The notes under the pieces: generated by a model
Database searches by the model: none
The model's input: the letters and a program-made list of their open reading frames with translations, nothing else
Told to the model about the DNA's origin: nothing
Assembly (NCBI GenBank): GCA_963736855.1
Contig: CAVTQK010000016.1
Coordinates: forward strand, 1 to 46,685
Reading direction: 5' to 3'
Source of the DNA: an uncultured delta proteobacterium
Lineage (GTDB): Bacteria; Desulfobacterota; Desulfobacteria; Desulfobacterales; UBA2156
Length of the DNA: 46,685 nucleotides
Part shown: positions 1 through 9,326 of the stretch, piece by piece
Layout of the letters: every line of letters starts with the position of its first letter
Position numbering within the stretch: position 1 is the stretch's first letter
Position numbers and translations under genes: made by a program

Positions 1-78
1 AAAAGGAATCACCACGCGCCGGTTCAACCGCAACCCGCGTAATAAAAATGTTTGCAGCGCCTGCGACTGGGAGAAGAT

Positions 79-869
79 TTGCCCGAAAAAATAGAAAAGC
101 CCTCGTACCTGGAACACCGCAAACGGCTGAAAAAACGTTTTGTCCGAACCGGTTTCAGCGGTTTTCATGATTACGAAGTTCTGGAATTCCTGCTGTATTT
201 TGCCGTACCGCGTAAAGACACGAAACCTCTTGCCAAAGCGCTGCTGGATCGCTTTGGCAGTTTCACTGCGGTTCTCAACACCGATATAAAGGAATTGCAG
301 ACAATTAAAGGCATCGGACCCCAGGCCGCCTTTTTTTAAAGGCTGTCGGCGCCACGGTCGGCTTTTATTTTGATGAAAAGGCAAGTCAGAAACATATACC
401 ATTTACCGATCTGAAACAGCTTGTGGAGTATTTCCGGGCAACCATCGGTGGGAACCCCAACGAGGTGATGCGTGTGGTTTATTTAAACAGCAGCAACCGC
501 CTGCTCTATGCTGAAAACTTAAGCGAGGGAACCGTGTCGGAAGCGGTCGTCTTTCCCCGTAAAATCGTGGAAGGAGCATTGAAATACCGGGCCACGGCGG
601 TTATCATCGCCCACAATCACCCGGGCGGACTGCCGGAACCGTCAGAAAACGATCATATCATGACCCGGAAAATCCGGGAAGCCTTGCAGACGATAAACAT
701 CAACTTGCAGGAGCATGTCATCGTAGCCCCGGAAGGCTTTTACAGTTTCCGGCAAAATGGGGAATTGGATGATGCTTGCGGAAGAGACAATACAGTGATA
801 AAATACAAAAACACGAGGTGGGTAAGGAACATAGCCGGTGCCGCGAAATTCCATTTTTCCCTCCTTTAA
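79..869 (+). pseudogene. radC: RadC / JAB-domain protein, split by a frameshift at a T7 run (~331-337)
   Basis: N-part HRKRLKKRF...YEVLEFLL...PRKDTKPLAKALLDRFGS and HhH motif IKGIG; C-part GTVSEAVVFPR, AHNHPGG, EHVIV. One extra T joins ORFs 52..339 and 423..869. Confidence 0.9.
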
Positions 870-906
870 AAGTAAGAGGAAGTAAACCCCTTTTTTTGGA
901 GATCAT

Positions 907-1121
907 ATGAAAGCAACAAAAGGAAGGTATCCGATCTGACGGTTGAAGAGCTTAAATCCGTCATTCATGAAGTCATTGCCGAAGATATGGAAACTTGGCG
1001 GGAAACTCTCGAAATCATGGCTGACCGGAAATTGATGAACCAGATCAGAGAGGCGGATGAAGACTGGAAAACAGGCAAGAAGAAGGCATACGTATTATGG
1101 AATGATCTGAAAAATGTTTGA
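907..1121 (+). CDS. Putative antitoxin (not in ORF track; apparent 1-nt deletion in A-run near 918-921)
   Basis: ATG at 907 after GGAG. Shifted frame reads KVSDLTVEELKSVIHEVIAEDMETWRETLEIMADRKLMNQIREADEDWKTGKK...WNDLKNV*, and overlaps the toxin start. Confidence 0.7.
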
Positions 1122-1386
1122 AATCATTGTCCACAGGAAAGCAGCCAGGTTCTTTAAGAATGCTGATGCCGCCACCAGGCACCGTGTTTCCGAAGCCTTC
1201 GATATCATTTCAAAAGATCCCCGATACCACACTCATATACAAAAGCTGAAAGGCGAACTGAAGCACATGTATCGTTTCCGTCTCGGCAATTTGAGAATCC
1301 TCTATGAAATTGAAGAAGATATTCAAACCGTCAGGATCAAAGCGATTGAAACGCGAGGCTCTGCTTATAAGGGCATCCCGGAATAA
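1114..1386 (+). CDS. Type II TA toxin, RelE/ParE family
   Basis: KLKGELKHMYRFRLGNLRILYEI...IETRGSAY RelE-type motif; 90 aa. Confidence 0.9.
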   Translation: MFEIIVHRKAARFFKNADAATRHRVSEAFDIISKDPRYHTHIQKLKGELKHMYRFRLGNLRILYEIEEDIQTVRIKAIETRGSAYKGIPE

Positions 1387-1402
1387 GGAGTAAACGAAAA
1401 AA

Positions 1403-1891
1403 ATGGCGTTAGATCAGAATATGCCCACTGGATTGTACTGGCAGGGAAAAAAGACCGAGGTGGAGCGGATTGTTCTGCCTTTTCAGACTATCGAGACAGT
1501 CAACGAAAGCCGGGCGACGCGGGAAAAGGAGAAAAAGACCGGCTTTGACATGTTCAGGTCCGGGGTGGGCGATTCCTGGTACAACCGCCTGATCTGGGGA
1601 GACAACAAGTACATCATGGCCTCCCTGCTGGAGGAATTTGCCGGCAAAATCGACCTCATCTACATCGACCCGCCCTTTGCCACCGGCGCCGATTTTTCCG
1701 TCAAGATGGAAATCGGGGATGTGGAATGGACCACGGAGCCTTCGGCCATCGAGGACAAGGCCTACCGGGACACCTGGGGCTGCGGTCTGGATTTATACCT
1801 GCAGATGATGTACGAACGGCCGGTGTTAATCTGGGAATTCTTGTCCGAGCGTGGTGTGCTCTACCTCCATTATCAGAACAAATTGACCTGA
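1403..1891 (+). pseudogene. Site-specific DNA methyltransferase (N6/N4, Mod-like), 3'-truncated
   Basis: NRLIWGDN, KIDLIYIDPPF motif, AYRDTW. Homology stops at GVLYLH (~1870) where the repeated module begins; the SAM-binding part is absent. Confidence 0.85.
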
Positions 1892-2021
1892 TCATTGAAT
1901 TATCGGGAAAAATTTCCTGATAACTTTCCAAAAAAAGAGTATGAATTGCAGGAAAATTAAATCATTATCAGCATAAAATGAGCAACCATGTCAAGGATTA
2001 TCGGGTTTAGGAATGGCGGGG
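1869..2021 (-). repeat. Copy 1 of ~153 bp attI-bearing module (direct repeat of 7114-7267)
   Basis: ATTATCAGAACAAATTGACCTGAT...GGGTTTAGGAATGGCGGGG aligns by eye with 7114-7267, with about ten differences. Confidence 0.95.
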
Positions 2022-2084
2022 GCGTGGATTAAAACATTCCAGCGCCGATGAAAAAGCGGACGGTTGCGGAGTCGCCCCCCTCAC
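2016..2084 (+). CRISPR. Degenerate type I-C-like mini-array: 3' half repeat, 35-nt spacer, 5' half repeat
   Basis: GCGGGGGCGTGGATTAAAAC (2016-2035), spacer ATTCCAGCGCCGATGAAAAAGCGGACGGTTGCGGA (2036-2070), GTCGCCCCCCTCAC (2071-2084). Confidence 0.75.
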
Positions 2085-2199
2085 CAACCGGAATTTTAAG
2101 GGAAGCGCGGCTTTTGGTTCGCGCTTGCGTGGACCCTAAAACCGGGGTGGAGCCATCAACCGAAATTTGTCGAAAATGGAGAAGGCCTGCGGGATTGAG

Positions 2200-3716
2200 T
2201 TCAATCCGGCCGAGTGTTGCGGCATTTTCAACTTTCGCAATCCGCGATTCCATGAGGGACAGCTTCTTTTGCAGGTCCGTCAACCGAATTTCAAGATTTT
2301 GAAGTTTTTCCTGCTGGGTTATAATAAAGCCTCCTTTTCCTGCAAAGTCTGGTAAAGCCCTTGAATAGCCGACAGGGCAACGCACGTCCAAATCAACTGA
2401 AGCCAGATGGGTGTCGCTGCCGCCGACGCCGAAGCGGGAGCGAAAATCGCCGCCATTGGGCCGTATGGCGGATTCCGGCTGCTTGAGTTTGTAATTCCAA
2501 GAAGCGATCGGCAAGTTGACCAAACGCTTTAAGGTGTCGCGGCCGTCGATGGGAGTGATATTTTCTTTTTGGAGTTTTGATCACAGTTCGATTCCAAGAG
2601 CCGCTACCTGGGGCAAGGCGCGCGCCGACGAGAGCGATACCCGCCTGGTTTACACCGGTGACGAACCGGACTCCGCCCGAAGCACGGACGGCGGGAACCC
2701 GTGCTCCGCAACGGAGGCAAATTCCGCATTGCTTGAATCCGCGAATAGAAAACAACCGGTATGGTCGGGGCGTACAGCCGGCGTCGGCCTGCCGCCAACT
2801 GAAAGCACCGGCGGCGATATTGGAGTCTCCGCCCGGGACAGTGGCATAGGCACCGGTGGCCTGATTGGCGTTACCGCCGCCGATAGTCGGCATAGGCTGC
2901 ATCCAGTTCATCCTCATCGGCATCGCCGGCCTGATGTTGGCCCGCCCGCCGCCGATGGTGTTGCTTTAACTATCCGTAATTTTGTTGTTCAGGCCTCCGG
3001 CAATTGTTGAATCATGCTCTCGCCTGATTCCCGCCACCACCGGGGATCGATACCTCTCTGCCCCGCGCCTTGTTGGCAATCCCTCCGCCGATAGTCGCAT
3101 AGGCTTCGTCAGCGATATTGTAGAATCCTCCATGGATCGTGGAAGCAAAAGCACTTGCGGTATTATTCCCGCCGCCGCCGACAATGGAATGCCTGCCCAG
3201 GGCCTTATTACCGGAGCCGCCGCCGACAAAGGCGTACCCTTCCATGGCGCTGTTGGTAATGCCCCCGCCCACGACGGCATATCTCCCGCCGGCTGTGTTG
3301 CCATATCCTCCGGCAACCGTGCTGCTGTCGATCAGGGCGGTATTATAACCGCCGCCGCCGATGACACAACGCAGTCCAGGCGCCTGGTTTAAAAGGCCCC
3401 CGCTCACGGCCGCCAGATTCCCCGCTTCGTTGCCTATCCCTCCGGCAATAACGCCCGAATCGGCTCTGACGATATTCGGAAAAGACGACTGCCCTCCGCC
3501 GGAGATGACTGTTTCCTTGGCTCCGGCATCAATTTGATTCCCCGGAAAGCCCTGATTGATATTGAAGGAATCAGGAGACTGGTCTTTCTTTCCTGTCGAG
3601 TCAGAAACAACCTGAGCAGCCGGGATGGGCAACAGGACCGTGGCCAGAAAACAGACCGCGAAAAATGATTTCCGTTTTGTGTTTTGATGGGGCATGGATA
3701 GCCTCCTTATCTTCAA
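2200..3716 (-). pseudogene. Secreted Gly-rich repeat (GGGxxN-A) fibre/adhesin-like protein with C-terminal S74-type chaperone domain and coiled coil; multiply frameshifted, 3' end approximate
   Basis: Signal peptide, many (V/I)GGGxxNxA repeats, SFLFADS, VRASGGVRF, LAPGSGSW, LPIASWNYK...FGVGGSDTHLASVDLD, spread over at least four frames. Confidence 0.75.
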
Positions 3717-3779
3717 AAGCTGGCGTATTCGTGTTCGAACGTTTCCCCTGGTGTGTAAGGCTCCGTAGTTTCATGTGCC

Positions 3780-3877
3780 GGCTCACGGAAAGTTCAGTGG
3801 TCAAAGCATCCACTGGAGCGATTTGTCAGCGGTTACACTCAGTGGTGCGAAGCATCAACTGGAGCGATTTGTCAGCG
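3780..3877 (-). other. Degenerate attC site (3780-3831) with partial tandem duplication (3832-3877)
   Basis: Minus strand: CGCTGAC-AAATC-GCTCCAGT...ACTGAAC-TTTCC-GTGAGCC. R'' CGCTGAC is one mismatch from the complement of the cassette start GTTAGCG. Confidence 0.65.
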
Positions 3878-3934
3878 GCCATACGTCAGAAACATGCCAA
3901 ACTCGACCCGACCCAGACATCTGCTTCACTGCTC

Positions 3935-4630
3935 CTACTGGAAGCGTTCTTCCTTCCATGGATCGGCGGAGTTACTATAACCTTGGCTTTCCCAGAATCC
4001 GGGCTCATCGCGAGAGGTGACTTTGACAGCCTCCAGCCACTTGGCACTCTTGTAGAAGTAGCGATCAGGGATCACAACACGCACAGGAGCGCCGTGCGCC
4101 TGCGGCAGTTTTTCACCAAAGAAACTGTGCGCAAGGATCACGTTCTCCTTTCGGATCTCACTTATGGGAACGTTGCTGGTGTAACCTCCGGCGGCCTCAA
4201 AAATGACAAAACCTCCACTTCTGCGAGGCTTGACTCTATCCATGATTGTTGTCAGGCGAACGCCACTCCAGCTCGAATCCAGAAGAGTCCAGCCGGTGAC
4301 ACAGTGAATATCACAGATGATATGCACCTGGTCCAGGTTGAGCAGCTCTTGGTAGGAAAGGACGACCGGTCTTTCCACCTCACCATGGACGCGAAGGCTC
4401 CAGTTCGCAACAGTAGCGGTTCCAGGCGTGCCGCCCATATCCCGAATCTTTTCGATCGCCTGCTGCCCAGGAGGGAGACGGGGCCTGCCGTCCGGTCTGG
4501 TGTTGGCTGCCAGAGCGCGTTGCGCCGCGTCCGAGAGTTTAATGAAAGCTCCGGGCAACCCTATGCTCACTATAGTGCCGCCTGCTGCGGCCAGGAAGGT
4601 GCGCCTGGAGATCTTCTGGTCTTTTTGCAT
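3935..4630 (-). CDS. Tat-exported molybdopterin-dependent oxidoreductase (sulfite oxidase/MsrP-like)
   Basis: SRRTFL twin-arginine signal; RLPPGQ, DIHCVTGW, HGAPVRVVIP, YKSAKWL, GFWESQGY. Confidence 0.9.
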   Translation of the reverse strand: MQKDQKISRRTFLAAAGGTIVSIGLPGAFIKLSDAAQRALAANTRPDGRPRLPPGQQAIEKIRDMGGTPGTATVANWSLRVHGEVERPVVLSYQELLNLDQVHIICDIHCVTGWTLLDSSWSGVRLTTIMDRVKPRRSGGFVIFEAAGGYTSNVPISEIRKENVILAHSFFGEKLPQAHGAPVRVVIPDRYFYKSAKWLEAVKVTSRDEPGFWESQGYSNSADPWKEERFQ

Positions 4631-4740
4631 TGCCCCTCCTTTGTCAGTTGAGTCGGTTCCCGCCCCCTCGGGTCAGCCACAGTATCCAGGGTGATAGTGA
4701 GAGACAACGAGATGAGGGGCACCGCATTCTTCAGAACCTG

Positions 4741-4801
4741 CGCTAACGCTGAACTCAGCCGACGCAGCCTTTATGCGTTTAGCTGGAGTGACAGGTTATG
4801 T
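4741..4801 (-). other. attC site (61 bp)
   Basis: Minus: ACATAAC-CTGTC-ACTCCAGC...GCTGAGT-TCAGC-GTTAGCG; the TAA in R'' is the stop of the upstream ORF. Confidence 0.9.
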
Positions 4802-5092
4802 TTTTCTCGTTTCTTTTGGTTCAACAAATCTCCTGCTGAATTTCCTGATAAGCATGATGAAGAATGACACGATAATCATGGCAACAAAGGCTAACATCCC
4901 AACCAGTATGCCATTGGCAAAGAGCGCAATAACCATCTTGTAGCCGCAGTTTTCGGCACAGTTAATTAAAAAGGGCCACGAGGGAAATGTCAGCGCAAGA
5001 AAATCGTCGCGGATCGCAAAACCAAGAAACCCAACCACAATAATGTAAGCTATACAGAATATGAAAGCATATATAATGAATTTTCTAAACAT
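4796..5092 (-). CDS. Hypothetical membrane protein (gene cassette)
   Basis: Two hydrophobic segments, low GC; ATG lies within one attC R' (GTTATGT) and the stop within the next R''. Confidence 0.75.
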   Translation of the reverse strand: MFRKFIIYAFIFCIAYIIVVGFLGFAIRDDFLALTFPSWPFLINCAENCGYKMVIALFANGILVGMLAFVAMIIVSFFIMLIRKFSRRFVEPKETRKT

Positions 5093-5199
5093 AACGATGT
5101 TAATCAGCCGCGCCGGGTAAGCACCTCAGTCTTGATAAAGTCACCAACGTACTTGATGCTGCCACGTGGTCCGGTGTCGGGTTGAGCCGCACGTTATGG
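5089..5199 (-). other. attC site (111 bp)
   Basis: Minus: CCATAAC-GTGCG-GCTCAACC...GGCTGATT-AACATC-GTTATGT, directly after the toxin stop. Confidence 0.85.
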
Positions 5200-5200
5200 T

Positions 5201-5494
5201 CTAAATTTTTCGCTTTCGCCAATAATCTGGCTTTCTGTTGAGTTGCATGATGGCTATTATGAGTATTTCGCCAGCCTTTAGCTGATACACTACGCCGTAA
5301 GGAAAACGTCTGAGGAGGTATCTCCGGGTGTTTTGCGAGAGAGGAGTCCAGGCGAGAGGAAAGTCACATATGTTCTCTATGGCGAAGTGGACCTCTCGTG
5401 CGAATTCAAGCCCAAGACCCTCCTGACACGCGTCATAATACTCAACGGCGTCGAGGAGTTCAGCCTCTGCTTCCGGATGAAAACGGTATTTCAT
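5201..5494 (-). CDS. RelE/ParE family toxin
   Basis: FHPEAEAELLDAVEYY...TRRYLLRRFPYGVVY...IAIMQLNRKPDYW. Confidence 0.92.
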   Translation of the reverse strand: MKYRFHPEAEAELLDAVEYYDACQEGLGLEFAREVHFAIENICDFPLAWTPLSQNTRRYLLRRFPYGVVYQLKAGEILIIAIMQLNRKPDYWRKRKI

Positions 5495-5718
5495 TTCTTA
5501 AGCCTATCCTGCAGCTTGCGGAACACCTCTTCTCCGGGCACGGTTTCAACTTCCCCACTTTCTATCTCAGCTACTCTCCTTTCTGCCTCGATAGCCCACA
5601 GCTCATCTATGTCCTTGTGAGAAGGGTTGAGGCTTTCAAGGATCTTCACAACCAATTGAAGCCGAATCTCGATAGGGAGCGAGATCGCCTCGGATATAAG
5701 CTTATCTTTAGAAATCAT
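5491..5718 (-). CDS. Addiction-module antitoxin (TIGR02574-like)
   Basis: EAISLP...ILESLN...WAIEAERRVAEIESGEVETVPGEEVF; ATGA overlap with toxin. Confidence 0.9.
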   Translation of the reverse strand: MISKDKLISEAISLPIEIRLQLVVKILESLNPSHKDIDELWAIEAERRVAEIESGEVETVPGEEVFRKLQDRLKK

Positions 5719-5887
5719 GGGACTACCTCCAAAATGGGATGTTCATGGGCGATTATACATTCAAAATGAGCAGCCTGAAAACCTTTGAGCGGGAGGAGCA
5801 TTAAGAAAGACAACACCCGAGCTCTTTGACCACCCTACAGGGCCTGAAATACGGAGTGATCGCTCGGTGCACCGCATACCTCCTCAC

Positions 5888-5964
5888 CCATAACGCAGAA
5901 TTCAGCGGTTTGTGGGGCGTAGCGCAGCGAAGCCCCACAGATCCGTTGAAATGACAGGTTATAT
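5888..5964 (-). other. attC site (77 bp)
   Basis: Minus: ATATAAC-CTGTC-ATTTCAACGG...TGTGGGGC/GCCCCACA...CCGCTGAAT-TCTGC-GTTATGG. Confidence 0.92.
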
Positions 5965-6113
5965 GGCATTTTCTTCTTTCGCTTCCCTCCACTTCATTCT
6001 TTTTAAATTCCTCTATATATCAGGTATTGTTGATAACAATTTGTGTCCTCAAAACTCAAGGATAGGATAATAATCCATGAGTTCCAAATTATCGAAATAT
6101 TCATCTAAAGTCT

Positions 6114-6821
6114 TTACTTGGCATCTTCATACAGGTCCATATCGGGAAAATATTTTTTGGCGCATTCAGGACAAATACCATGACTAAATTCAGCATCAGA
6201 ATGTTTATGGATATATGATTCGATCTGACTCCAATACCCCTTGTCATCACGAATTTTCTTACAATATGAGCAAATGGGTAGAAAACCCCTCAATGTTTTA
6301 ACTTCTGATAGTGCCTTTTGAAGGGCCTCTATTAACTCCTCCCGTTGTTCCTCTACCTGTTTGCGTGCGGTGATGTCCAGCATGCTCCCGGCCACGGCGG
6401 GCTTTCCGGACAATTGGATTGTAGACCCTAAAATTTCAACATGGATTATTTTTCCGTTTTTCTTTATCCCCCGGAAGGTATAATTAACGGAGTTGACTTT
6501 CCCAGATATGCGCTTGCTGATCTGCTCTCGAACGACGTCTAAGTCTTCCGGGTGTACCGTTTGTCGAAAATGCATGTTATTGAGGCATTCCTCGACAGAG
6601 TAGCCTAAAATCTCCGCGAATTTCTTATTGACGTATGCGAAAATGCCGTCCTGGATGATATAAACGCCGGCCAGTGAAATTTCTGCAATGTCGCGAAATT
6701 TTTCTTCACTCTCCCGCAATTCTTTCTCCGCCCTCTTGCGCGCAGATTCAGTTTCCTCTAATTCCTGAACTCTTTGTTCAAGTTCTTCATAGGTATATTT
6801 TTTAGACACGATTATTACCAA
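6114..6821 (-). CDS. PAS domain S-box protein with C-terminal Cys-rich domain
   Basis: TYEELEQRVQELE, ESEEKFR, VHPED, DIT; C-terminal LPICSYCKKIRDDKGYW...FSHGICPEC. Confidence 0.9.
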   Translation of the reverse strand: MVIIVSKKYTYEELEQRVQELEETESARKRAEKELRESEEKFRDIAEISLAGVYIIQDGIFAYVNKKFAEILGYSVEECLNNMHFRQTVHPEDLDVVREQISKRISGKVNSVNYTFRGIKKNGKIIHVEILGSTIQLSGKPAVAGSMLDITARKQVEEQREELIEALQKALSEVKTLRGFLPICSYCKKIRDDKGYWSQIESYIHKHSDAEFSHGICPECAKKYFPDMDLYEDAK

Positions 6822-6936
6822 CTCTTCCTTTAATTTTCCGAGTTACGCTTACTTGCTTTCTTGATATTGATCAAACTTGGCAATACTGATAATATTTTCA
6901 ACTTTTATCCAGCTACATCCTTTGTTCGTTCGAGCC

Positions 6937-7030
6937 ATATAATGGCGAGCTGAGCGGCCGGCCGGTGAGCCGAGTTGCGCCGCAGGCGCGATGAAGGCGA
7001 AATCCGGTCCGCTCGAGCGTTTGGTTCCCG
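6937..7030 (-). other. Non-canonical attC site (94 bp; R'' CGGGAAC, R' ATTATAT)
   Basis: Minus: CGGGAAC-CAAAC-GCTCGAGCGG...CCGCTCAGC-TCGCC-ATTATAT; R'' is the exact complement of the cassette start GTTCCCG. Confidence 0.8.
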
Positions 7031-7101
7031 AGGCGCGCAGCGCCGAAGGCCAAACGCTCAGAGCGCAGCGCAGCTCGCCATTCCCGCGGCGCTGTGCGCC
7101 G

Positions 7102-7120
7102 CGGGAACCATTGATTATCA
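7102..7120 (-). other. Putative attI core site
   Basis: Minus: TGATAAT-CAATG-GTTCCCG, 7-5-7 geometry as in attI1 (CCCTAAA-ACAAA-GTTRRRY); lies at the head of the attC array. Confidence 0.7.
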
Positions 7121-7267
7121 GAACAAATTGACCTGATAATTGAATTATCGGGAAAAATTCCCTGATAATTTGCCAAAATAAAAAGTATGAATTGCAGGAA
7201 AGTGAAATCATTATCAGCATAAAATGAGCAACCATGTCAAGGATTATCGGGTTTAGGGATGGCGGGG
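7114..7267 (-). repeat. Copy 2 of attI-bearing module with multiple ATTATCRG boxes and candidate Pc promoter
   Basis: Six ATTATC(A/G)G/CTGATAAT boxes in both orientations; minus-strand TTGACA...GATAAT (19-nt spacer) facing the cassettes. Confidence 0.9.
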
Positions 7268-7288
7268 ACGAAGGGGCTCGAGCCTCTG
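7260..7288 (-). other. Degenerate tRNA 3'-end fragment (tentatively Asp-like)
   Basis: Minus: AGAGG-CTCGAGC-CCCTT-CGTCCCC-G-CCA has the spacing of T-stem/loop, acceptor strand, discriminator and CCA. Confidence 0.55.
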
Positions 7289-7300
7289 CTGGACTCAAGA

Positions 7301-7332
7301 GTCGCCCCCTGCGCGGGGGCGCGGATTGAAAC
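7301..7332 (+). CRISPR. Single full-length type I-C-like CRISPR repeat (32 bp)
   Basis: GTCGCCCCCTGCGCGGGGGCGCGGATTGAAAC: GTCG start, GCCCCC/GGGGGC hairpin, ATTGAAAC end. Confidence 0.85.
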
Positions 7333-7344
7333 CGAGGGGGCTAT

Positions 7345-7731
7345 TTAAATGACATCCGCGCCACGCTGAACGAGGAGTTCGCGCAAGATGGATCGGTGGC
7401 AGCGGGACTCCTCCCTGCAGTAGCAGCCGATGGAAAGATTCGTGTGATGAGAGAGCGCGGCGAGCAGATCCAGGTCTTTGCTCGCTTCAGGGGATTTCAT
7501 TTCCGCTAAAAACTTTTTCCTGAAGGCCATCCAGGAGTTTTCGTCCTCTGCGCCCAAGCCTTCCTTTAAAAGCACTTCCGAGGGGGACAAATTGGGGAAC
7601 CAAACATCGTAAAAGTTTTTTGAGGCAAACTCTTCTTTACGAACACCTCGCGGAGGGCGTCTGACGGTCCCGATTCGAAGTCCTTCCCCGTCTTCCCTGG
7701 GGCTTCCCAATCTGACGATTCTGATAGGCAT
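7345..7731 (-). CDS. DUF488 family protein
   Basis: EGLRIGTVRRPPRGVRKE...YDVWFPNLSPS...GCYCREESRCHRSIL; GAGGAG RBS before ATG 7731. Confidence 0.88.
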   Translation of the reverse strand: MPIRIVRLGSPREDGEGLRIGTVRRPPRGVRKEEFASKNFYDVWFPNLSPSEVLLKEGLGAEDENSWMAFRKKFLAEMKSPEASKDLDLLAALSHHTNLSIGCYCREESRCHRSILRELLVQRGADVI

Positions 7732-7976
7732 TTTCTCCTCAATCCACAAATGGAACAGACAGAACCCGGAAGGGATGTTTTGTCAGATCCAGGAAGCGGA
7801 TCAGATATTCCACCAGAAATGCGATTAGCCGTTTGGCATCGGACACTTTTTTTCCTCCCCTTAAAACAAAAAATCACGTAGGGGGCGTCGTGTCAAGGAA
7901 GATATCGGCAACTCCGCATTGACATCTATGCCCGCCGGTCGATATATGCCATGAAAATTTGCATCAAGGAGGGTTC

Positions 7977-9149
7977 ATGAGCGGATCCACCTACGACGTG
8001 GTGATCATCGGCGGCGGAGTCATCGGAAGCGCCGTGGCATACAACCTGATGCTCCTCGAACCCGGACTCAAGCCGGCCGTCTTCGAACGGGATCCTACTT
8101 ATACCCGGGCTTCCAGCACTTTGGGTCTGGCCAATATACGGGTTCAGTTTTCCTTAGCCCAGAACATCCGGATCTCCCAATACGCCATGGAGTTTTTAGG
8201 CCGGTTCGCCGAAGAGATGACGGTTCGCGACATCCGGCCGAACGTCTATTTCCGGAAAGAGGGGAACCTTTTCCTGGTGGATGAGAGCGGTCGGAAAACC
8301 GCATCTCAGGCCCTGGCCCTGCAGCAGGAGTTGGGATGCCGTGTTGACTGGTGGACTCCGGATAGGATCCGGGAGCGCTACCCCCTGTATGATCCGGCCG
8401 GGCTCGAGGGAGGAACTTTCGGCGCCGACGACGGCCACATCGACCCCTATGCCATGCTCATGGGGTATCGGGCCAAGGCCCGATCCATGGGGGCCGATTA
8501 CATTAAAGGGGAAGTCAAGCAAATCCTCGTTGACGGAAAACGGGTGACCGGTATCGAAACGGACAGCGGCAGCCGCGTGGCTGCCGGGGTTGTGGTTAAT
8601 TGCGCCGGCGCATGGGCTTCCGAAATTACCGCAACCGTTGGAATCCGGCTGCCGGTCGTTCCGGTCAAACGGCAGGTGTTCGTTTTGGATACGGCGGTCA
8701 AACCGGAATCCCCTTTGCCCCTGACCGTACTGCCGTCCGGGCTGTATTTCCGCTCCGAGGGAAAAGGCGCCATCGTTTTGGGTAAGTCCATGCCTGAGGA
8801 TCCGGTGGGGTATGACTTTACCTGGGATGACAAACGGTTCATGGATATCCTGTGGCCGGAACTGGCTGCTTTTGTTCCAAAATTTGATCGCCTCAAACTG
8901 ATGAGGGGTTGGGCCGGGTTGTATGCCGTCAACACGCTGGACGGCAATGCGATACTGGGGGAATGGCCCGAATTGAAAGGCTTCTTCCTGGCCAACGGAT
9001 TTTCAGGTCATGGCCTGCAGCAGGCCCCCGGGGTGGGCCGCTACCTTGCTGAAAAAATTCTGGGAAAAACCCCGGCGTTGGATCTTTCCATCTTCGATCC
9101 TGTCCGGATCCTGGAAAATCGCCCCGTCGATGAGAAAGGGCTTGTTTGA
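7977..9149 (+). CDS. FAD-dependent oxidoreductase (sarcosine oxidase beta/DAO family)
   Basis: DVVIIGGGVIG, VVNCAGAW, GWAGLY, NGFSGHGLQQAP. Confidence 0.92.
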   Translation: MSGSTYDVVIIGGGVIGSAVAYNLMLLEPGLKPAVFERDPTYTRASSTLGLANIRVQFSLAQNIRISQYAMEFLGRFAEEMTVRDIRPNVYFRKEGNLFLVDESGRKTASQALALQQELGCRVDWWTPDRIRERYPLYDPAGLEGGTFGADDGHIDPYAMLMGYRAKARSMGADYIKGEVKQILVDGKRVTGIETDSGSRVAAGVVVNCAGAWASEITATVGIRLPVVPVKRQVFVLDTAVKPESPLPLTVLPSGLYFRSEGKGAIVLGKSMPEDPVGYDFTWDDKRFMDILWPELAAFVPKFDRLKLMRGWAGLYAVNTLDGNAILGEWPELKGFFLANGFSGHGLQQAPGVGRYLAEKILGKTPALDLSIFDPVRILENRPVDEKGLV

Positions 9150-9326
9150 TTCGGTTTTCAAGGGCATCGATTTCATTTCATATCTTGACAATGCAAGTTC
9201 GATTTATTAAAGATAATAAATTGTTAACCGTCTTTTGAGGGAAGGAGGTGATGTTGCAAGGCGTTGCGCCATTTTTTGTTTCATCACCTGAGGTGCTTAT
9301 CATCAACCGACAAAAAGGAGAACAAC

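Follow-up and report, generated by a model that had tools for sequence, protein, structure and literature searches.

A family of mobile gene-less integron cassettes carrying an inverted copy of their own attC site

The 46,685-nucleotide stretch of DNA analysed here (the window) contains an array of integron cassettes on its minus strand, the first of which is gene-less (7107–6943, minus strand; 165 bp, 72% G+C; Table 1). The attI site in front of it is genuine, since the same 13-nt core lies directly upstream of intI on contig C24 of the same genome and heads the array on C14; the region upstream of the simple site matches the attI regions on these two contigs at 82–86%. No integrase family was found among the 39 window ORFs scanned, and none of the 16 integrase-model matches in the genome is on the cassette's contig. 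Four of these, located elsewhere in the genome, pass the integron-integrase cut-off (one of them is split), and the array has both a verified attI and an integrase available in its own genome. The attC has R″, L″ with an extra-helical base, an unpaired central spacer, L′ and R′, and its R″ (7024–7030) is exactly complementary to the start of the cassette. The initial annotation of a cassette running from attI to attC holds for these two ends, with the qualifications that the attC crossover is A|TT rather than G|TT and that no intI is adjacent. We regard A|TT as a tolerated variant, since it is also present in 3 of 30 ordinary attC sites of the genome. The bases that follow the element's crossover match the R″ of the downstream gene cassette. 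The G|TT core is the only tested feature in which the 165-bp element departs, as judged from its sequence, from an integron cassette, and its excision as a circle is predicted. No joint matching the circle junction was found among the contigs listed, a search of contigs only that does not imply absence.

Table 1. Features of the gene-less cassette and its surroundings in the window
Feature	Position	Strand	Remarks
Gene-less 165-bp cassette	6943..7107	minus	Full homologue in G005
attI simple site	7102..7121	minus	L box 7121–7114; 5-nt spacer 7113–7109; crossover G|TT between 7108 and 7107
attI upstream region with repeated TTATC/GATAA boxes	7122..7259	minus	intI absent beyond
Hairpin A, 12-bp perfect stem and 3-nt loop, pairs cassette start (R box)	7081..7107	minus	
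Anti-right arm, complement of attC L′-spacer-crossover arm (6943–6952)	7071..7080	minus	10/10 match
Remnant L boxes and 3-nt loop of inverted attC copy	7060..7070	minus	GCGNAGC on bottom strand
Anti-left arm, complement of attC spacer″-L″ arm (7015–7024)	7050..7059	minus	
Hairpin B, GGCGC-N3-GCGCC	7032..7044	minus	GCGNAGC mini-hairpin on bottom strand
attC	6937..7030	minus	R″ 7030–7024; L″ 7018–7011 with extra-helical base; L′ 6955–6949; variable terminal structure ~7006–6960; 5-nt spacer; crossover A|TT at 6943
Downstream gene cassette	5894..6942	minus	PAS-domain ORF 6821–6114

Upstream of attI, where intI is expected (7260–7332), there is a 25-nt copy of the 3′ end of a tRNA-Asp gene (92% identical to C17:47673–47697) together with one CRISPR-like repeat that has no second copy in the assembly and appears with spacers in reads of runs X2 and X4. 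At 1869–2024, inside a truncated ORF, the attI upstream region recurs as a coreless copy (94%), which is followed by the partial end of a CRISPR-like repeat. Further cassettes at 4747–5893 encode a ParE and addiction-module antitoxin pair (5718–5201) and a 98-aa ORF, with an attC each, and a RadC/UPF0758 gene (52–869) is in two frames, split at a T run near 333–338. Elsewhere in the genome, a transposase-like sequence directly follows the intI-adjacent attI (G000 C24:202100–205849; loci L002 and L005), and a second transposase and tyrosine recombinase unit is present at the C24 contig end.

The cassette is authentic and non-coding. A 202-nt contig of run X1, which may be the source sample, covers 6907–7108 with no differences, and a genome of the same genus (G005) has a full copy, 82% identical, at attI beside intI; these two observations rule out the fold-back artefact in raw reads that had been raised as an objection. 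Summed contig depth in run X3 is 116–260 over the cassette and 23–61 in the flanks, which is not a copy number, and only 5–6% of the sequence words were found in the RNA runs. Protein coding is also ruled out, as the two TTG-started frames that overlap the cassette have no Pfam match, and the lengths of the homologues (129–173 bp) keep no frame. The length, the ends and the ORF-less character given in the initial annotation are thus confirmed.

The body of the cassette is an inverted and shortened copy of its own attC arms, both in the window and in all full-length relatives. In the inverted copy the terminal structure is deleted and the L pairing is broken. The structural elements described in the initial annotation are all present: the 22-bp hairpin with a 3-nt loop across the circle junction is perfect in the computed circle, the second stem enclosing R″ is 10 bp (7015–7024/7050–7059), and the two GGCGC-N3-GCGCC palindromes are at 7032–7044 and 7088–7100. 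Its description of the circle as almost wholly self-complementary corresponds to 76–78% of bases paired in the circular MFE. Folding of both strands is better than for 200 of 200 shuffles on each (DNA z scores of −5.7 and −5.5; RNA z score of −6.4).

These structures are predicted to mask the attC site. Using the pfold measure of folding probability (PMC5371416, in excerpt), the log10 pfold of the window attC is −2.0 alone, −12.0 with the cassette body and −5.0 with a shuffled body. Among 15 family members (see below) the corresponding ranges are −0.4 to −6.7, −5.8 to −15.4, and −0.9 to −9.0. The isolated sites are unexceptional, with a pfold of ~1e-2 to 1e-3 in the window and mostly 1e-1 to 1e-4 in the window and 41 distinct sequences in which attC boxes were located. 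In the window the drop is 9.9 logs, whereas 31 other attC sites of the genome fall by 0.7 logs in the median and by 5.1 at most, and only this one of 32 attC-like sites has both arms complemented upstream. The attC of the upstream neighbour is little affected in nine of 12 cases, falling only 1–2 logs, with the other three behaving differently. In the masked fold the spacer is paired and the extra-helical base is absent, and a Vibrio attC in this condition recombines 8.5e4-fold less (PMC2727003, in excerpt). All of these values are equilibrium results of an energy model, according to which the expected fold of the 165-bp element is a DNA rod with hairpin caps in which its own attC is hidden. 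The proposal of two competing folds, one attC-competent and one masking, is therefore borne out computationally, and far beyond what is seen in ordinary attC sites. The related suggestion of a recombination switch fares less well: the energy model does show masking, but we found no trigger for switching.

Stepwise exposure of the bottom strand from its 5′ end gives a more dynamic picture. The log10 pfold is −3.7 to −4.7 until position 7050, −9 at 7060, and −12 to −13 at 7080–7085, such that a window with a pfold of ~1e-4 exists before the anti-arms emerge.

A search for homologues revealed a family. Scans with the hairpin-A pattern picked up 51 loci on contigs from genomes and 69 on metagenome contigs, of which 18 and 55, respectively, were kept as members by anchor motifs or a profile; the others (33 of 51 and 14 of 69) were discarded, being either chance hairpins or fragments of insufficient length for classification. 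The 79 matches represent 58 distinct insertion contexts and include 38 distinct full-length sequences of 129–173 bp in at least seven subfamilies, which we refer to as F1–F7. Titles of the member records include Desulfobacterales, Desulfobacteraceae, Desulfatiglandaceae, Polyangiaceae, Ca. Poriferihabitaceae and Actinomycetota MAGs. The family is nonetheless rare, since a hairpin-B/R″ pattern is present in only five of 400 other genomes of the class and a query with L150 matched none of 400 other genomes of the phylum. There were no matches to two patterns in viral contigs and no family match in a phage collection. Four short matches in a plasmid collection, none over 22% coverage, were rejected as chance. 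We found no published account of a self-masking cassette with an inverted attC in the open literature, to which this search was confined; sequence lists outside it may include members.

All full-length members have the same plan, with hairpin A, the anti-right arm, a short loop, the anti-left arm, hairpin B and attC in order, and by sequence they are head-to-head dimers of a hairpin-plus-attC unit in which the inverted copy is disabled. The body arms track the attC arms of the same copy: on average 8.4 of 9 positions of a body arm pair with the attC arm of that copy, against 4.5 with arms of other types, in counts that are not phylogenetically independent, and the tracking includes a compensated one-base indel. 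Since the MAFFT alignment (A1) misregisters F3–F5, we counted pairs by anchored walking. The search pattern included hairpin A; in copies found outside the pattern (L055 and L150), the R box is changed together in all three places. Compensatory changes of this kind had been proposed as a check, and they are present among the family members. The crossover is A|TT in F1–F3, F6 and F7, and G|TT in F4 and F5; R″ has one or two mismatches to the cassette start in many F1 copies, and the AAC of R″ and the L″/L′ pairing are nearly invariant across the family.

There are also informative departures from the full-length plan. Seven of the 58 contexts contain body-less monomers that lack the anti-arms, at attI as well as behind attC sites (L131 has three monomers), showing that mobility does not depend on the inverted copy; the sample contains more dimers than monomers. 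Internal deletion derivatives (L066:757–812 and L148:312–370) retain hairpin A, the anti-right arm and the right arm, and have lost R″. In a divergent member (L175/L183; G806 C299) the arm pairs over 7 nt with the attC of the upstream neighbour rather than with its own, and in L115 5 nt of the arm are templated by the neighbour. Such neighbour-templated conversion could homogenise arms, and covariation need not mean selection.

A simple alternative is that the family is a neutral by-product: occasional inverted dimers of empty cassettes arising by insertion via the top strand, short and so often excised and re-inserted, with no function and with extra helices that simply extend hairpins A and B and owe their perfection to quasi-palindrome correction. 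The templated arms, the many deletion derivatives and the mobile monomers all agree with this, as does top-strand recombination, which takes place at a low rate (PMC5027507, in excerpt), and a template switch across hairpin A in the circle would copy the element's own attC arm and generate covariation without selection. Correction does not appear to be the whole story, since the L-box mismatches of the inverted copy persist in F1–F3 while the spacers track. Other observations are also difficult to accommodate, including the excess of dimers over monomers, the fact that dimers are most intact at attI in G805, the conserved bottom-strand mini-hairpins described below, and 31 of 46 copies that have no pairing with the upstream site. 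We consider this explanation unlikely, but it is the strongest of the alternatives.

The elements move as discrete units with exact crossover ends, as seen in the 58 contexts and in G807, where an identical element is in two arrays with different neighbours on both sides. Classed by eye, some 19 of the 58 contexts place the element at an attI-like site and most of the rest behind an attC, so that occupancy of the first position, as annotated for the window, is not a property of the family; a bias towards it is not established. An IntI tblastn match is within the fetched DNA at 11 of 25 attI-type loci. Four F4 loci in Actinomycetota records (L059, L062, L068 and L095) are behind AT-rich attI-like sites, with no IntI match in the fetched flanks. 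The attC loops of F2 members (L031, L083, L100, L145 and L028) contain GATAAC/GTTATC and TTTTCCCGA-like motifs that resemble the boxes upstream of attI, and these are possibly IntI binding sites or captured attI sequence. An apparent excess of A|TT at upstream partner sites was dropped, given that three of the 30 ordinary own-genome sites share it.

Downstream cassettes are nearly all different between contexts, and the element's own attC is therefore used often. Composite movement is indicated by two cases only (L068/L095 and L098/L109), in which an element-plus-gene unit is behind two different upstream sites. Elements also alternate with gene cassettes: 15 of 17 distinct element-to-element gaps (395–1256 bp) hold one gene cassette, counts that are approximate since attC finders are incomplete. 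In ~12 other cases an ordinary cassette comes after the gene cassette behind the element, and the window genome, with one full copy among 32 attC-like sites, has no alternation. An element is never directly behind another in 60 downstream starts (with a few duplicates among them), although this could reflect assembly collapse or slippage. The single-contig chromosome of G805 has nine matches, five of them in one 4.6-kb array, with the greatest intactness at attI and no tandem copies among the nine; G806 and G808 have seven matches each, fragments included. No reverse-orientation insertion through the inverted site was seen among the classed copies, although the anchors could miss such cases. 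G805 also has an unrelated short cassette of ~170 bp with no ORF of 80 aa, between two attC sites (L194:12400–12700 region).

One way of accounting for both the alternation and the lack of tandems (0 of 60), as well as for integration with a masked attC, is that the rod fold itself is a double-stranded attI- or attG-like substrate for a folded attC, with which the element inserts behind any attC and never behind itself. Double-stranded attG does recombine with folded attC (10.1101/2022.09.11.507474, in excerpt). Nevertheless, most subfamilies have A|TT where the attG consensus is GWT, and the reported right-hand motif is absent; a third of the copies are at attI, and the near-invariance of the R″ AAC and of the L″/L′ pairing is expected for an attC fold that is used. 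We regard this as very improbable.

The conserved sequence signatures of the family are on the bottom strand. In the 38 bodies we counted 77 GCGNAGC motifs on the bottom strand and two on the top strand (counts that are not phylogenetically independent), and every member, in each of the seven subfamilies, has a bottom-strand copy; 30 ordinary attC sites of the genome contain four and three occurrences, respectively, and only two of the 30 have one on the bottom strand. Similarly, 19 non-canonical pairs give G·T on the bottom strand and six on the top, to which mutation bias could contribute. Ordinary attC sites have the same kind of strand bias (PMC5027507, in excerpt). DNA hairpins of the GCGNAGC type are unusually stable, nuclease-resistant and poor binders of SSB, and they occur at phage single-strand priming sites (PMC13037366, in excerpt). 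Neither wobble pairs and loops favouring the transcribed top strand nor a U-tract terminator is in evidence: a T5 run and a sigma-70-like motif are each found in one of 38 members (predictors are unreliable for gene-less cassettes), there is no terminator-like or minus-strand promoter-like site in 6800–7400, and Rfam gave no relevant match in window positions 1–9300 or at seven member loci. The only Rfam hits were a weak match to a CRISPR repeat, lying outside the element, and one miRNA match attributable to chance. The strand signatures, together with the lack of an Rfam family, a terminator or a conserved promoter motif, favour a role as single-stranded DNA on the strand that IntI recombines over one as RNA, and argue against the structured RNA or attenuator suggested initially.

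For the same reasons we think it quite unlikely that the element is a leader cassette useful to the host, placed before genes as a promoter, as protection for the 5′ end of mRNA or for tuning of read-through. Its position upstream of a gene cassette is constant and often alternating, and its top strand has a strong RNA fold; moreover, gene-less Vibrio cassettes are often promoters that prediction tools miss (10.1101/2023.11.21.568050, in excerpt), and untranslated cassettes can lower downstream expression (PMC11511950, in excerpt). These considerations are set against the bottom-strand location of the signatures and the scarcity of promoter- and terminator-like sites noted above.

The mini-hairpins could alternatively indicate a helper for excised circles, acting as a priming or SSB-exclusion signal that stabilises circles of element plus gene, or causes them to become double-stranded, and improves their re-integration. 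Their presence in every body, the poor SSB binding of such hairpins and their occurrence at phage priming sites, and the movement of composite units all fit, but ordinary cassettes integrate without mini-hairpins and single-stranded cassettes can recombine without replication (PMC12614218, in excerpt). We assign this a low probability.

The best explanation is, in our view, that the element is a non-coding, non-autonomous cassette that persists as a selfish, IntI-dependent hitchhiker of single-stranded DNA, a reading for which the chances are about even. It corresponds to the selfish minimal cassette of the initial annotation, the best-supported of the options given there, the element being multi-copy, in many contexts, without an ORF and present as identical copies in the two G807 arrays. 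A minimal hairpin-plus-attC cassette may have been inserted in reverse, via top-strand recombination, in front of its twin to give the head-to-head dimer, and the terminal structure and internal box pairing of the inverted copy would then have been lost. IntI supplied in trans would recombine the bottom strand. When the whole strand is exposed the body would mask the element's attC in the array, and the masked site would often be skipped at excision such that the element exits and re-enters with the gene cassette behind it. If instead the attC is exposed first from the 5′ end, it may fold briefly before the anti-arms appear and allow the element to be excised alone and copied to attI. Once excised, the circle would relax to a hairpin-capped rod, in which the mini-hairpins may resist SSB and nucleases, and, as a masked attC is presumably a poor target, insertion of an element behind an element would be discouraged.

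Further points weigh against a selfish dimer. At equilibrium the dimer circle is predicted to be almost unable to take the recombinogenic fold (5e-6 to 2e-19, compared with 0.025–0.47 for the monomer), which leaves its route of integration unexplained, and there are the ~12 non-alternating cases and the single full copy in the window genome. A bolder version of the selfish reading, in which the element is a minimal replicon made of structure only, is tentative and on balance improbable. It would be a single-stranded DNA dumbbell of ~130–175 nt with an anti-site hiding its attC, immune to self-insertion and occupying every other slot, with SSB-resistant mini-hairpins that prolong or prime its circles, and an escort for the gene cassette behind it.

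The family consists of mobile gene-less integron cassettes, each with its own attC repeated in inverted form. The usual interpretation of gene-less cassettes is as promoters; this family gives the impression of having been selected, or at any rate shaped, as single-stranded DNA, and the folding model suggests that it controls access to its own recombination site by a built-in anti-site. It provides a small natural substrate for questions on the form, lifetime and re-entry of an excised cassette and on the selfishness of cassettes. Copies also donate attC halves to gene cassettes by deletion (in the window genome on C9, and at L069, L076 and L108), a possible route for genes to acquire or swap attC sites. 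In the C9 example (L025; G000 C9:672835–672903), 69 bp are identical to the 3′ part of the element's attC and are joined to the left half of the attC of another cassette; the fusions at L069, L076, L108, L149 and L045 are similar.

REPINs and MITEs are short, non-coding, multi-copy elements with two inverted recombinase or transposase target hairpins that are moved in trans. The cassette is likewise short, non-autonomous and multi-copy (e.g. the nine matches in G805), but its ends are IntI crossover points, it is found only in integron arrays and it has no dedicated transposase; transposase-type ends with a target-site duplication are lacking, no duplication being seen in the 58 contexts. Group IIC-attC introns and IS1111-attC elements are parasites of cassette arrays that encode their own enzyme and interrupt attC sites, whereas the element encodes nothing and is itself a cassette. 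With attG sites it shares a rod fold that would present a fully paired site, although its A|TT does not conform to the GWT crossover consensus (10.1101/2022.09.11.507474, in excerpt). Close parallels are also found among ORF-less cassettes, including those of Vibrionaceae and Treponema and the recurrent 'empty' cassette of Xanthomonas, which also lack an ORF, end in attC and have several copies per array (10.1101/2023.11.21.568050, PMC8876359 and 10.1101/2025.06.18.660453, in excerpt). They differ in being described as promoter or sRNA cassettes, and the available parts of those descriptions, by which rather than by sequence we set them apart, do not mention an inverted copy of the cassette's own attC, self-masking or alternation. 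Finally, the low-pfold attC sites of Vibrio (VCRs) are similar in that recombination is limited by competing folds, with isolated sites of the lowest class at 1e-5 to 1e-7 (PMC5371416, in excerpt), whereas here the isolated site is ordinary and the upstream anti-site takes it to ~1e-12.
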